Below, one piece after another: positions 1,055 to 5,827 of a DNA stretch of 31,968 bases. Position numbers and translations under genes: made by a program. The notes beneath the pieces are model-generated. The model searched no databases, was not told the origin of the DNA, and saw only the letters and a list, made by a program, of their open reading frames with translations. Where the stretch lies: the NCBI GenBank assembly GCA_029856365.1, contig JAHQWW010000030.1, forward strand, positions 1 to 31,968, given 5' to 3'. The stretch's first letter is position 1, and each line of letters opens with the position of its first letter. Source of the stretch: Candidatus Hodarchaeota archaeon (GTDB lineage Archaea > Asgardarchaeota > Heimdallarchaeia > Hodarchaeales > Hodarchaeaceae).

Positions 1055-4000
1055 ATGTCTTCAGATAACTTAAACTTAATTTCGGAAATTCTCACTAAAC
1101 TTAATAAGCTTATCTCAAAACCTGTTTGCGCACCAGAGCTTACCAAGTACTCTAAACTTGTTCAACAATATTCTCAGACGACAAAGGAAATTGATAAGGC
1201 AGGCAGACTTGCAAAAAGGGGATTAAAAAGGCAGCAGGAACAACTTCAATCTGACCTTACAGAATCTGAGGAAGTGTGCTTACAATGTATTTTTAACTCT
1301 TTGGTCAGAGATCTGAAACTAATTCTTGAAAATCAAACCCAAGCACTCTCAGCAGTTGCACCACAAGCTGCAAGCTTACTACGGAATATTAGATTTCCTC
1401 TAACTTCAGAAATTGGAGCAATAATAACCTTCATTGAAGATGTAGAGAAAGCACAAGCCGACACAACAATCCAAACAAGAAATCTATGTAAAATGCTTCT
1501 TAATGATAATCAATCTAAAATTAAAATTTATAAGAATCTCATTTCTCTGGATGAGAGATCATATCAGCAAACAAAAATCTTAACCGAGGATGCACTTGAT
1601 TCTCTTTCAGTTTCAGACCTATTGAAATCATATTCAACTCTTAAAGAGGAGCAAAAACTAATTAATCAGCAACTAGCCACATCCACTGACACTGTTCAAC
1701 AAAAACTTTTACAGTCAGTTCACGAACTCATTTATTCCATACAAGAGGGAGCTAAAAGAGAGATCATACCTGATATCGAGGAGTATCGAGAAGTTAAGGA
1801 ACTCTCGTCACAAGTTGAAGTAGCCAATACAATTGATGAGCTAAATCTACTGAACACTAAAGTCTCGCAGTATATTGTAAAATATAGTACTGCTATAAAA
1901 TCAGAGATAGCAAGGGCAAGAACAACTGGAAATAATCTGATTACACAAATCCGTGGTCTGTTTCCAACGCTTTCAAAAAAATGGATGCCCTCTCCTCCTG
2001 ATGTATTACCTTCAAAGGTTTCCATAACTGACTTGATGAGCTATTTTGATGAGATAAATAAGTGGGAGAAAAATATTCTCGATGTAATAAAGAAAATTTC
2101 TTCTGTTGATGAGTTGAAACAAGTTACTGAGGCTTCTCTTCAAGAGGGGCTCAGTATCCCGAATACACTTATAGCCAATGTGACAGAAACAGCCAATCGA
2201 ATCCAAGAAGAAACAGTTACTATCAAAGAAGCTTTTAAGAGACTGGAGAATTTTCATGTTTATTATACCGAGTTTCTTAGTATTCTACGCGATAACATCA
2301 GCAATAATCTAAATTTAGATGTTACTGACTCTGACTCTAGTGCATTAATATCACTTAAACCTCCTATCATTAATATCCAGTCTGATAGTCCTTCGGAGCT
2401 ATTAAGCTATATTCGAGCTGTTAATATTTGGAAACGCAAGTTGGTTAATGTTTTACAAGAAACTAGACACGATATAAATGATACTATCGCTAATGTCAAT
2501 CAATTAGAAAGAAAAGGGATTAATAATTTTCCTCCTGATTTTCAAGCTGAACTCACGACCCTTTATGAAAAAATGGCATTAGAAACTGAAGTCCATACTC
2601 TTTTACTGTACCGGCGTTCTTATGACCGCTTATATAAACAATTTGTAACATTAACAGCTGCATATATCAAAGACTTTCTGAAAAACGTCACAGTGCTCCA
2701 ATTGCTAGAATCAGAGTCAGATGTTCCTCGTCCTCCTTTTGTTGAGGATGCAGGAGAGCTAGACCTCTCTGAATTACTTAATAGAATTGAATCAGTTGAG
2801 GAATGGAAACGAAAAGTTCTCACTTTCCTCAAGAACAAAATTGAAGGGCTGAGTTTCCCATTGATACCTGGAGAGGTTCCAGTTGATTTGAGGAAAGAAA
2901 AAAACACGCTTCTAGCTCAATTGACAGGCACTGCTGCTGCCCGAAATTTTGTTTCATCAATTAAAAGCTATTTCACTTTCATGAAAACCATGTCTTCTTC
3001 TAAGAATTTGATGATCGAAGAAACATTAAAACAGATTGAAATAACAGAAAAAATCGATCAATCTTCGATGCAATACTTTAAAGAGGTAATTGGCCAAGCT
3101 CCCATCTTTGAGATCCCTAAAGACCTTGAGACACTGGATTACTCTGAGCTTTTAGAATTATGGTTTCGTCTAGATACCTATAATAGAAAAAAAACCGAAC
3201 TTGTCCAACTTAAATGTAGGGAACTCCTATCAAGTTGGTTGAAACAATACAAATCTCTACCAGCACATTATTCAAATATCTTCAATCCCTTGTTTTTAGT
3301 GCTAGATCAAGCCTTATCTGAGCTAAATCAGTCTTTAGATACAGAAGAAACATTAACGAAGTATGAATTCTTTTTGAATGGTGCAACCAGTAAAGCACAA
3401 GAAGGCCTTGAAAAATTAAAAGCTTTTTTCTACAATAAGGTGACAGTTAGTTTACCCCGAATCACAGAGGTAATAGGAGAGGTTTCTCCAGAAATTCTCA
3501 AAGTCTATAGCTTTTTAGAGAGTACAATTTCAACTAAAGATCAGACACTTGAATCAGTGCATCGTCTAATAGTTGAAACTATCCATGATTATGAATATAT
3601 TTTGCTAGCGAAACTTATGGAACTGTTAAGCATCTCAAGTAAAAACTTACTCATGCAGATTGCCGAACTTCAAACCTGTGGAATTAATCTTCAAAGCTTA
3701 GTAGGAGAACAGATCGAAGTCTTCACGCAATTAGTTCAAGCAGATTCCTCTGATATGATGTCTGTAGAAATGATTACTCAATCCTTTGTTGAACTAGATA
3801 AGATATTAAAAAATGAATCACTTCAGAAATCATTATTTGAGATTATTGAAAAAAATAATACCATTGCTGGTAGAATATTGGATTTTGTTCAAGCATTAGG
3901 TTGGAAAAACGCTCAACATATATTAATGCCTTATGTTGTTGCAATAAAGCAAGCTAAAGGAACAATACAATTTTGGTCCTTTGATCTTATCGCAAAGGCT

Positions 4001-4480
4001 ACAATTGAAGTCATAAAAAGATCAAAGGAACTGATTCAAGCTATCCGACAATTAGAACAAGAGAATTATGATGTTTATCTTTCTGAATTAGAATCTGATC
4101 CAGCAATACCCTATTATAAAAGTATTAAGGAAGTATTTAAATTTCAGCTGGATGAATGCTCAAAAAATATTTTTCCACTTAACGAATTATACGCTACAAG
4201 AGAACAAATGAAATTATCGGAAGATCTAAATGAAATCTATGGCTTATTAACTACAATTTCAAAATTAAAAACACAATGGAAGCAAGATTGGTTGCCAGTG
4301 ATTTCAAAATGGCACAGTGTTCTCTTTTTATTTATTAGTGATTATACGCCAACGACGGATCGTGAAGAAAAGATAACTTATCTTGCGAATGCAAAACGAG
4401 AAATTGAAGAAGCATATAATCATCAGCCGATGATGCAGTATTTATCCTCAGCTGTAGAACTTTACATAACAAGTAGATAA
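1055..4480 (+). CDS. Large all-alpha helical repeat protein, unknown function
   Basis: 1141-aa ORF rich in L/E/K/I, with no NTPase motif or TM segment seen. An internal repeat P(P)-x9-11-(S/T)(D/E)L(L/M)...W/Y starts at residues ~314, 436, 560 and 683. It ends 12 bp before the tubulin-like gene. Confidence 0.75.
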   Translation: MSSDNLNLISEILTKLNKLISKPVCAPELTKYSKLVQQYSQTTKEIDKAGRLAKRGLKRQQEQLQSDLTESEEVCLQCIFNSLVRDLKLILENQTQALSAVAPQAASLLRNIRFPLTSEIGAIITFIEDVEKAQADTTIQTRNLCKMLLNDNQSKIKIYKNLISLDERSYQQTKILTEDALDSLSVSDLLKSYSTLKEEQKLINQQLATSTDTVQQKLLQSVHELIYSIQEGAKREIIPDIEEYREVKELSSQVEVANTIDELNLLNTKVSQYIVKYSTAIKSEIARARTTGNNLITQIRGLFPTLSKKWMPSPPDVLPSKVSITDLMSYFDEINKWEKNILDVIKKISSVDELKQVTEASLQEGLSIPNTLIANVTETANRIQEETVTIKEAFKRLENFHVYYTEFLSILRDNISNNLNLDVTDSDSSALISLKPPIINIQSDSPSELLSYIRAVNIWKRKLVNVLQETRHDINDTIANVNQLERKGINNFPPDFQAELTTLYEKMALETEVHTLLLYRRSYDRLYKQFVTLTAAYIKDFLKNVTVLQLLESESDVPRPPFVEDAGELDLSELLNRIESVEEWKRKVLTFLKNKIEGLSFPLIPGEVPVDLRKEKNTLLAQLTGTAAARNFVSSIKSYFTFMKTMSSSKNLMIEETLKQIEITEKIDQSSMQYFKEVIGQAPIFEIPKDLETLDYSELLELWFRLDTYNRKKTELVQLKCRELLSSWLKQYKSLPAHYSNIFNPLFLVLDQALSELNQSLDTEETLTKYEFFLNGATSKAQEGLEKLKAFFYNKVTVSLPRITEVIGEVSPEILKVYSFLESTISTKDQTLESVHRLIVETIHDYEYILLAKLMELLSISSKNLLMQIAELQTCGINLQSLVGEQIEVFTQLVQADSSDMMSVEMITQSFVELDKILKNESLQKSLFEIIEKNNTIAGRILDFVQALGWKNAQHILMPYVVAIKQAKGTIQFWSFDLIAKATIEVIKRSKELIQAIRQLEQENYDVYLSELESDPAIPYYKSIKEVFKFQLDECSKNIFPLNELYATREQMKLSEDLNEIYGLLTTISKLKTQWKQDWLPVISKWHSVLFLFISDYTPTTDREEKITYLANAKREIEEAYNHQPMMQYLSSAVELYITSR

Positions 4481-4492
4481 GGGGTTCTTATT

Positions 4493-5827
4493 ATGGCTAA
4501 AGCAAGTAGAGAAGCAGATGTATTCATAATTGGTATTGGAGAATGTGGGTCAAATCTAGTGGGTTCCTACATTCAACAAAGTAAAAAACAAACAGGAGCA
4601 TCTAGGATCCGTGAATATCTTATAATGAACACCGATAAAACAGACCTTACTAAAACCCGTACTGAGTATTCAATTCCTAATCAAAACACACTGATGTATT
4701 CCGATGAAGAAATAGGTGTGGGGGGTAAGTTTAAAGAGGGTAATGATCTTGTCTTAAAGAATCAGGATCTCATCCTTAACCAATTAAAAGGATTAGGGTA
4801 TGAGGGGGTCTCAGGTTTCATAATTTTGACTAGTCTCGGTGGTGGTACTGGTTGTGGTGGTACTCCAGCACTTGTAGAACTTCTTCATAAGCGATTTTCA
4901 GAAGAAAGACGGATATTCATTTATGTATTTGGTGTTTTACCATTTGAGAATCAATCTTCGGAAGCAATAAACTCTATCTGGTCTTTATCGACCTTATTAA
5001 GAAATCAATTAGAACCAAACAAGGGGCCAAATTTAATATTTTTATTATCGAATAAAACTATGTTAAAAAGAGTAATGGGTTGGAGGGAGGGGCGTGCAAG
5101 TGCTTTATTGGACCAATCCTTAGGAATTGATTCTGCTGACTTAGCATCTAGTGATGAGCAGCAACGAATGGAAACAGAGTTAGAATTTACTCAGTTAGTT
5201 AATCCGTTAGCTTTACAAACTATAGAAGCAATTCTTTCCCCAAGTATTCAGGAACCAGGTAAAAAAGTTATGCCAACAACAGATCTAGCTGATTATTCCA
5301 GAAGATTAGATCCAGTTGTAGTTCCCTGTTATTTTGAGGATATGTACTTTCTACCTGAATATGGTAGAATGGAAAAACAAATGGCCTTAGCAGCAAGATA
5401 TGCTGTTAACCACTGTTCATTAACAGATATTGAAACAAAACCCATGGCAGGCTCTGTTTATTCCATTTTTACTGGATATAAAGATATAGCTAAACTAGAA
5501 TATTCAGCTCACCTAAAAAAGATTCTTGCGCCATATCTCGTAAAAGGTGGATCGATCCAACCGTCATTTGTAGCTTACGACGATCCAACTATAGATAGGT
5601 CTTCTATTCTCTTACTTTTTGGTTTACCTCTTATTCCAGAACTACGTGATGTATACAATGATGCCACTAATTTGATAGCATATCATGATGACTCAAAATC
5701 AACGATTAAACGTGGTTGGTTTGAAAGATCGAAGGGAGTAAATCGGGATCAACTACAAATTGCTATGGATGATATTATGAATCTTTTTGGCAAGTATATG
5801 GCCATTACTGAAGATGATAACAAGTAG
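4493..5827 (+). CDS. Tubulin/FtsZ-superfamily GTPase (divergent, with tubulin-like C-terminal helices)
   Basis: T1 GIGECGSN, T2 MNTDKTDL, T3 GVGGKFKEG, signature SLGGGTGCGG, T5 VLPF...EAINSIWSL, T6 LLSNKTM, T7 TTDLADY. C-terminal WFERSKGVNRDQLQIAMDDIMNLFGKY. Confidence 0.93.
   Translation: MAKASREADVFIIGIGECGSNLVGSYIQQSKKQTGASRIREYLIMNTDKTDLTKTRTEYSIPNQNTLMYSDEEIGVGGKFKEGNDLVLKNQDLILNQLKGLGYEGVSGFIILTSLGGGTGCGGTPALVELLHKRFSEERRIFIYVFGVLPFENQSSEAINSIWSLSTLLRNQLEPNKGPNLIFLLSNKTMLKRVMGWREGRASALLDQSLGIDSADLASSDEQQRMETELEFTQLVNPLALQTIEAILSPSIQEPGKKVMPTTDLADYSRRLDPVVVPCYFEDMYFLPEYGRMEKQMALAARYAVNHCSLTDIETKPMAGSVYSIFTGYKDIAKLEYSAHLKKILAPYLVKGGSIQPSFVAYDDPTIDRSSILLLFGLPLIPELRDVYNDATNLIAYHDDSKSTIKRGWFERSKGVNRDQLQIAMDDIMNLFGKYMAITEDDNK

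Follow-up and report, generated by a model that had tools for sequence, protein, structure and literature searches.

Is the large protein encoded beside a tubulin-like gene in a Hodarchaeales contig built from true tandem repeats, and what might such a protein do next to a tubulin relative? We address both questions for a 31,968-nt stretch of DNA (contig JAHQWW010000030.1, positions 1-31,968, assembly GCA_029856365.1, Candidatus Hodarchaeota archaeon; hereafter the window), which carries the gene of a 1141-residue repeat protein, P0001, followed by a gene of the tubulin/FtsZ family. P0001 is a member of a family of large all-helical proteins that is undescribed and restricted to Asgard archaea; the family is co-inherited with the tubulin-like gene of the type called Asg.Tub and is almost always encoded directly upstream of it. 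Judged from sequence comparison, its repeat of about 123 residues is real but old. P0001 and its close orthologues are referred to as family 1, and the family of a paralogue, P0057, as family 2.

The tandem repeat of P0001

A model's reading of the DNA letters alone (the sequence-only reading) had proposed four tandem units of about 123 residues, here called U1 to U4, with starts at nt 1994, 2360, 2732 and 3101 of the window. All four starts are in frame with the open reading frame (ORF) at 1055-4480, in which they correspond to amino acids (aa) 314, 436, 560 and 683, and the peptides quoted for them are present. PP dipeptides at aa 314, 436 and 560 and Trp residues at aa 337, 459 and 584 recur with a spacing of 122-125 residues. 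The Trp that the reading held to be conserved is invariant in U1-U3 across the family (W337, W459, W584) and nearly so in distant homologues; the segment before U1, called U0, lacks it. As had been supposed, the DNA is not obviously repetitive, with no tandem repeat found by Tandem Repeats Finder (TRF), and the duplication is old. A blastp comparison of P0001 with itself returned the identity diagonal only.

The units were compared by Smith-Waterman alignment against 300 composition-preserving shuffles. The z values reached 6.5 for U1-U2, 8.1 for U2-U3 and 3.8 for U1-U3; U4 against every other unit and hypothetical units placed on the same period on either side of U1-U4 all stayed at z <= 1.5. 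Using the alignment of the 23-member family, hhalign paired U1 with U2 at a probability of 92.6% (E 4.5e-7, 98 columns in register), U1 with U3 at E 2e-4 and U2 with U3 at E 4e-4 (down to 1e-6 in other unit comparisons). An unbiased self-alignment of the whole family 1 profile was also significant: its best off-diagonal match joined 314-576 to 436-701 with a shift of 122 (E 2.2e-7), and a further match paired 360-701 with 227-576, extending into the segment before U1. When the alignments of families 1 and 2 were merged, a single path of 504 columns (E 1.4e-12) chained aa ~186, 314, 436, 560 and 683, and the S-x-E/D-L-L start motifs of U0-U4 were aligned throughout it. The middle of each unit holds a second landmark, hydrophobic-P-x-D/N/T-L/F, near aa 238, 368, 492, 608 and 744. 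Off-diagonal matches were obtained between different families as well, which rules out an alignment artefact: U2 and U3 of family 1 matched U1 of family 2 at 51-63%, and residues 180-364 and 230-357 of a short form of ~900 aa matched P0001 311-481 and 474-599 at 86% and 79%, respectively.

The boundaries of the array turned out differently from the proposal in two respects. U1-U3 stand above chance, but U4 taken by itself does not reach significance (P 0.12); it falls into register solely as the tail of chained self-alignments, together with its predicted helix pattern, and has the start motif and the mid-unit Pro motif with a displaced Trp. Degenerate units had been expected on either side. 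Upstream this expectation held, with U0 supported at a probability of 77% on a clean alignment (E 2e-5) and 96% on a wide alignment (U0-U1), better than U4; downstream it did not, and residues 806-1051 cut on a 123-aa period received no support from shuffles, hhalign or the unit profile. Weak repeat-like similarity within aa 1-178 was hinted at only by the chained alignment of the merged profile. Our model of the array comprises three robust units (U1-U3) and one supported degenerate upstream unit (U0), with U4 plausible from its register and predicted structure.

P0001 has no Pfam match at E <= 0.1, and the repeat family is therefore undescribed, in line with the earlier suggestion that it may be new. 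Its 37 homologues show no consistent Pfam family (25 families listed of 55 with weak matches), and a PDB sequence search with the P0001 family profile gave nothing at E <= 1. There are 23 full-length orthologues at 52-86% identity in metagenome-assembled genomes (MAGs) whose source names place them in Hodarchaeales (Asgard). An exhaustive HMMER search added distant homologues of 863-1405 aa, which share 16-25% identity and match the full length of P0001 or large N- or C-terminal parts of it (E 1.6e-68 to 1e-9).

These homologues differ in unit number between N- and C-terminal domains that remain constant. The N-terminal region (aa 1-178) is kept between families 1 and 2 (hhalign E 8e-10 and 2e-7) and in the ~900-aa short forms (model 2-392), and the C-terminal region (aa 806-1141), in which several Trp and Tyr residues are near-invariant, is kept in all homologues, short forms included (model 626-1132). 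A hidden Markov model (HMM) built for the unit detected three units in forms of 1140-1170 aa, four in forms of 1244-1311 aa and about one strong unit in those of ~900 aa; the forms of about 1280-1310 aa have one extra unit relative to P0001. In the ~900-aa forms, the match to the profile is limited to positions 2-392 and 626-1132; the ~234 missing positions equal two units, with breakpoints inside units, as expected of unequal recombination. U1-U3 are the most alike among the units; they were probably gained last, at a time before the two paralogues of Hodarchaeales diverged, a direction read from an unrooted comparison, and U0, and U4 too, are probably older.

Families 1 and 2 align 1:1, with U3 and U4 as the best conserved segment between them (E 1.9e-17) and U2 as the least conserved unit. 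Both paralogue families of Hodarchaeales retain a nearly invariant loop in U3, F-P-x-I-P-G-E-V-P-x-D-L-R-x-E-K; inspection by eye of a single short-form stretch (P0046 aa 301-480) did not show it. This loop is a candidate interaction motif.

The all-helical nature that had been supposed for the protein agrees with its AlphaFold2 prediction. Full-length P0001, modelled with a 37-sequence alignment, was predicted as all helices with a predicted local distance difference test (pLDDT) of 83 and a predicted template modelling score (pTM) of 0.36, and aa 305-695 alone gave an all-helical model with pLDDT 82 and pTM 0.60. The models of U0-U4 follow a common order, in which a non-helical Pro-rich linker of 10-25 residues leads to helix A, a short helix C and a long helix D. 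Helix A is predicted to carry the start motif and the Trp and is sometimes fused with a short helix B; helix C begins at the Pro landmark, and helix D spans 30-48 residues. Both models place non-helical Pro-rich linkers at aa 311-323, 420-445, 554-570 and 676-695, and the predicted U4 helices (696-733, 737-757 and 763-807) agree with the unit pattern. A 75-residue three-helix bundle, 7uhb_K, fits U0 of the full model (aa 213-283) and U2 of the aa 305-695 model (aa 465-536) with a root-mean-square deviation of 2.0-2.3 Å. The two fits are offset by 252 residues, that is, by two units, and thereby serve as an indirect superposition test of the units. At least U0 and U2 are predicted to contain an antiparallel three-helix bundle.

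Pairing with a tubulin-like gene

To our knowledge, Asg.Tub is a branch of the tubulin superfamily found in Asgard archaea only. The tubulin-like gene of the window begins 12 nt past the stop codon of the repeat gene, with a GGGG tract before it, and the closest PDB sequence matches of its product, P0003, are the CetZ entries 4b45, 4b46 and 3zid. The protein is a member of the CetZ-like 'Asg.Tub' group of Santana-Molina et al. 2023 (PMC9871819). For the genome context of Asg.Tub, that paper mentions only 'unknown genes with coiled-coil regions', and these unnamed neighbours are almost certainly the P0001 gene family. Unlike the present account, it neither defines the family nor describes its repeat architecture, its distribution or the statistics of the pairing.

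The distribution of both genes was surveyed in a sample of 300 Asgard genomes, with a cut-off of E <= 1e-80 for the Asg.Tub profile. The large-protein family occurs in 117 of the 300 genomes (about 39%) and Asg.Tub in 112. The GTDB families that are positive are the same for both genes (f1, f2, f10, f11, f13, f17, f19, f20 and f28), and those that are negative are likewise identical, including other families of the same class. We compared by eye the coordinates of the ~103 pairs listed in both outputs. In all but three of them, the large gene is followed immediately on its own strand by the tubulin gene, less than 140 nt away, and the pairing extends across the phylum. The exceptional pairs lie 0.6 kb (G016), 4.3 kb (G118) and 9.9 kb (G183:C230) apart. 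Two of these, G118:C96 and G183:C230, come from the same genus and have a family 2 large gene separated by 4.3 and 9.9 kb from the tubulin-like gene instead of ~70 nt, which suggests insertions into the operon.

At every retrieved locus with enough flank, L001, L002 and L004 among them, a PF00091 gene stands next downstream of the large gene, and at one more locus, where the contig end cuts the next gene, tblastn shows that this gene is tubulin-like too. Between the same two loci, the tubulin-like partner shares 54% identity versus 21% for the large protein. One peculiarity concerns the tubulin-like matches of GTDB family f17, where in at least 8 genomes the match holds one in-frame TAA or TAG (for example, G113:C52:2842-4179 and G066:C3:122113-123444); the profile may overrun the gene end, and the recurrence in one family is odd.

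The source genome has two pairs of a large gene with a tubulin gene, which means that both genes were duplicated together. The second pair, on contig C9, consists of P0057, a helical protein of 1172 aa that is 25% identical to P0001 (E 4e-65), and P0058, an Asg.Tub paralogue 54% identical to P0003. The P0001 type scores as a type of its own in the source genus alone, in at least 8 of its 21 genomes, and the P0057 type is present in all 21. The contig C9 copy of the module (genome G000, locus L007:3162-10219, minus strand) is the more conserved one and also encodes an unknown protein of 361 aa and an apolipoprotein-like helical protein of 284 aa. Upstream of it lie MoCF-biosynthesis and CDC48 genes, as in locus L002, a context that is widespread.

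Possible roles beside Asg.Tub filaments

The termini are constant, the array between them differs by entire units, and the gene is strictly co-inherited and has been co-duplicated with that of a tubulin-family polymer-former; this combination suggests a modular rod or spacer by which Asg.Tub filaments are organised or tethered. We hold with moderate confidence that the P0001 family serves as such a rod or scaffold of modular build, which would bind Asg.Tub filaments physically as their structural partner and is EzrA-like in logic. The central 500-630 residues of the protein are a tandem array of units of ~122-135 residues that arose by old internal duplication. Each unit is predicted to consist of a conserved Pro-rich linker, a helix with the S-x-E-L-L...W-K/R motif and an antiparallel bundle starting from the hydrophobic-P-x-D/N-L/F landmark. 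The array may then act as a rod or spacer of adjustable length, and the whole protein as a scaffold, bundler or tether of Asg.Tub filaments.

Four known systems invite comparison, and EzrA comes nearest in logic. EzrA, a spectrin-like FtsZ regulator of Bacillus and Staphylococcus (PDB 4UXV), has five triple-helical bundles of ~100 aa (Cleverley et al. 2014, PMC4243239). Its repeats are serial antiparallel bundles with little mutual sequence similarity, followed by a distinct C-terminal helical domain (PMC4243239). It is a helical-repeat partner of a tubulin-superfamily polymer, a partnership that gene pairing suggests for P0001. Few multi-repeat chains aligned over all three units of the aa 305-695 model; EzrA chain 4uxv_A was one (255 residues), with a score in the helical background range, and the EzrA family PF06160 had no Pfam match in P0001 or among the families listed for its homologues. 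P0001 differs from EzrA in having no N-terminal transmembrane anchor: no transmembrane segment was found in it, the top 19-residue Kyte-Doolittle mean being 1.26 at aa 849, and its N-terminus is polar.

The spectrin repeat has ~106 aa, and its helix C is continuous into helix A of the next repeat. Like spectrin (PF00435), P0001 has a Trp in the first helix of a tandem module, predicted here to form a three-helix bundle, in a putatively cytoskeleton-associated protein; unlike spectrin, it has units of 122-135 aa, non-helical Pro-rich linkers of 10-25 residues and an extra helix per unit. PF00435 had no match in P0001 (E <= 0.1), nor among the 25 families listed for the 37 homologues. The earlier description of the units as spectrin-like in concept but longer than ~106 aa applies only in a loose sense: the Trp is conserved and three-helix bundles are predicted, but no spectrin match was found and no continuous helix joins the units.

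The PRC1/MAP65/Ase1 proteins (PDB 4L3I) have a helical rod, as is proposed for P0001; the spectrin-fold domain that binds the tubulin polymer is a feature of the PRC1 group. A PRC1-like protein has been reported upstream of OdinTubulin (PMC9871819). The Foldseek row for PRC1 (4l3i_A) was non-significant (E 0.47, prob 0.35, TM 0.11-0.23), and PF03999 had no match in P0001 or among the 25 families listed for the homologues; P0001 has no sequence relationship to PRC1. BtubC, also named Bklc, comes from the btubAB operon of Prosthecobacter; it belongs to the TPR proteins and has about 250 aa. A filament-stabilising role is attributed to it (as cited in PMC9871819). BtubC and P0001 are both operon-encoded all-helical repeat proteins alongside prokaryotic tubulin genes; P0001 differs in having no TPR signal, a size 4-5 times larger and a different repeat.

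Several observations weigh against a filament-organising rod. Binding to Asg.Tub is deduced from gene pairing. The tubulin-like protein, with an isoelectric point (pI) of 5.25, is acidic like P0001 (pI 5.2), unlike the situation for classical basic microtubule-associated proteins (MAPs). The pTM of 0.60 for three units fits a straight rod or a compact body alike. Foldseek searches of the PDB with the full model and with aa 305-695 gave nothing at E <= 0.001 (best E 0.009-0.26), the VIA structure-comparison scores lie within the background range for helical proteins, and neither EzrA nor spectrin nor PRC1 was matched significantly in structure. Against the profile of U1-U3, U4 scored P 0.12, no better than a reversed-sequence control (0.034). 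In addition, the slower-evolving family 2, taken alone, has no internal repeat signal: none of its unit pairs rose above 5% probability, in an alignment that carries little information because it is 63-94% identical. A complex prediction for P0001 aa 560-1100 with the tubulin-like protein, with alignments as input, scored 0.00 and gave no answer, which counts neither way. The top Foldseek rows (dynein tails, designed proteins) were rejected as not meaningful, with TM about 0.1.

If P0001 were a molecular ruler or multivalent MAP, each ~123-aa unit would dock on one subunit or longitudinal repeat of the Asg.Tub protofilament in fixed register, an idea that goes back to the tubulin spacing raised in the sequence-only reading. 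Both conserved landmarks, the helix with S-E-L-L...W-K/R and the turn with P-x-D-L, do return in each unit, as repeated binding sites would, and the gene pairing is tight. We nevertheless consider a ruler unlikely: the unit number varies by lineage while the tubulin partner stays 50-55% identical, the helices of 30-48 residues imply bundles of ~4.5-7 nm (1.5 Å per residue) with no obvious match to the ~4-4.4 nm subunit repeat, and among the units U2 shows the lowest conservation between paralogues.

It also seems improbable that P0001 is a signalling or membrane adaptor that links Asg.Tub to other machinery, such as the flanking Rag-type GTPase, with repeats that dock those partners rather than the filament. 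A 311-aa gene and a 735-aa Rag/Gtr1-type GTPase gene are indeed conserved neighbours at P0001-type loci, but the Rag-type and other flanking genes accompany this genus-level paralogue alone. The pair of family 2 and the short forms, which is older and much more widespread, neighbours MoCF, CDC48 and an unknown gene of ~340-360 aa. Since the neighbours differ between paralogue loci, the tubulin-like gene is the only universal partner.

We regard as quite improbable the view that P0001 works independently of the tubulin-like protein and that the two genes are adjacent through co-regulation or history. This view accommodates the three pairs separated by 0.6-9.9 kb (G016, G118 and G183:C230), and the evidence for pairing is purely genomic. 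It does not readily accommodate a presence and absence that match across ~30 GTDB families, a same-strand adjacency kept at class-level distances with the large protein down to ~20% identity, or the joint duplication of both genes within the source genome. That there is no true repeat, and that a helical or coiled-coil composition produces the periodicity as a side effect, is very improbable, because the helix-rich nature of P0001, the missing self-match in the better-conserved family 2 and a U4 indistinguishable from its reversed control are outweighed by z values of 6.5-8.1 over composition-preserving shuffles, alignments of 100-120 columns that keep exact register and place the Pro and Trp landmarks at the same position in each unit, cross-family off-diagonal matches and homologues that differ by whole units.

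A bolder form of the rod or scaffold proposal, which we find doubtful, would make the family the first dedicated structural MAP of the archaeal tubulin-like cytoskeleton, with units that bind along or bridge Asg.Tub protofilaments and a unit number that sets filament spacing or tether length. If true, length-tunable filament organisers in the style of spectrin and PRC1 would be older than eukaryotes and present in the Asgard lineage closest to them. In the literature searched, no functional study of Asg.Tub was found, and the repeat family and the defined gene pairing appear undescribed. The pairing defines one universal genetic partner of Asg.Tub, a large modular helical protein with a new repeat family, and offers experimenters a concrete two-protein system at a time when cultures of Hodarchaeales and Lokiarchaeia are available. 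The natural series of 3-, 5- and 6-unit variants bears on whether the repeat number sets filament geometry. A duplicated helical bundle is in itself ordinary, a variant of known cytoskeletal scaffolds; the interest lies in its partner and lineage.

Features of the window and neighbouring genes

Table 1 Positions, strands and characteristics of the P0001 segments and adjacent genes in the window
Feature	Residues of P0001	Position (nt)	Strand	Remarks
Upstream gene, 311 aa		49..984	+	conserved before the repeat gene, at P0001-type loci only
Repeat-protein gene (P0001)		1055..4480	+	ORF and translation, 1141 aa
N-terminal conserved helical region	1-178	1055..1588	+	sole basic part of P0001, pI 8.6
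Unit U0	~179-313	1589..1993	+	degenerate upstream copy without Trp
Unit U1	314-435	1994..2359	+	PP linker, motif helix with W337, helical bundle
Unit U2	436-559	2360..2731	+	W459
Unit U3	560-682	2732..3100	+	W584, strongly conserved FP.IPGEVP.DLR.EK loop
U3 loop	601-616	2855-2902		almost invariant in both Hodarchaeales paralogue families
Putative unit U4	683-805	3101..3469	+	start motif and helix pattern in register; sequence alone not significant
C-terminal conserved helical region	806-1141	3470..4477	+	no repeat signal
Downstream CetZ-like tubulin/FtsZ-family GTPase gene (Asg.Tub type, P0003)		4493..5827	+	PF00091 E 6.7e-20
Rag/Gtr1-type GTPase gene, 735 aa		5881-8088	-	N-terminal Gtr1/RagA-type GTPase domain (PF04670, E 3.6e-29)

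The 311-aa gene stands directly upstream of the repeat gene in L008, L009, L010, L012 and L013, where tblastn detected it at 61-92% identity in five species. Its product has no Pfam match. We rejected the idea that it is a relocated copy of the ~350-aa gene found 3' of the tubulin gene elsewhere, as it has no similarity to the 361-aa protein. On the other side of the pair, the 735-aa Rag/Gtr1-type gene is convergent on the tubulin-like gene, and its product carries a long tail with a poly-Lys tract behind the GTPase domain. This gene is a conserved neighbour in the P0001-type loci L008, L009, L011 and L014.

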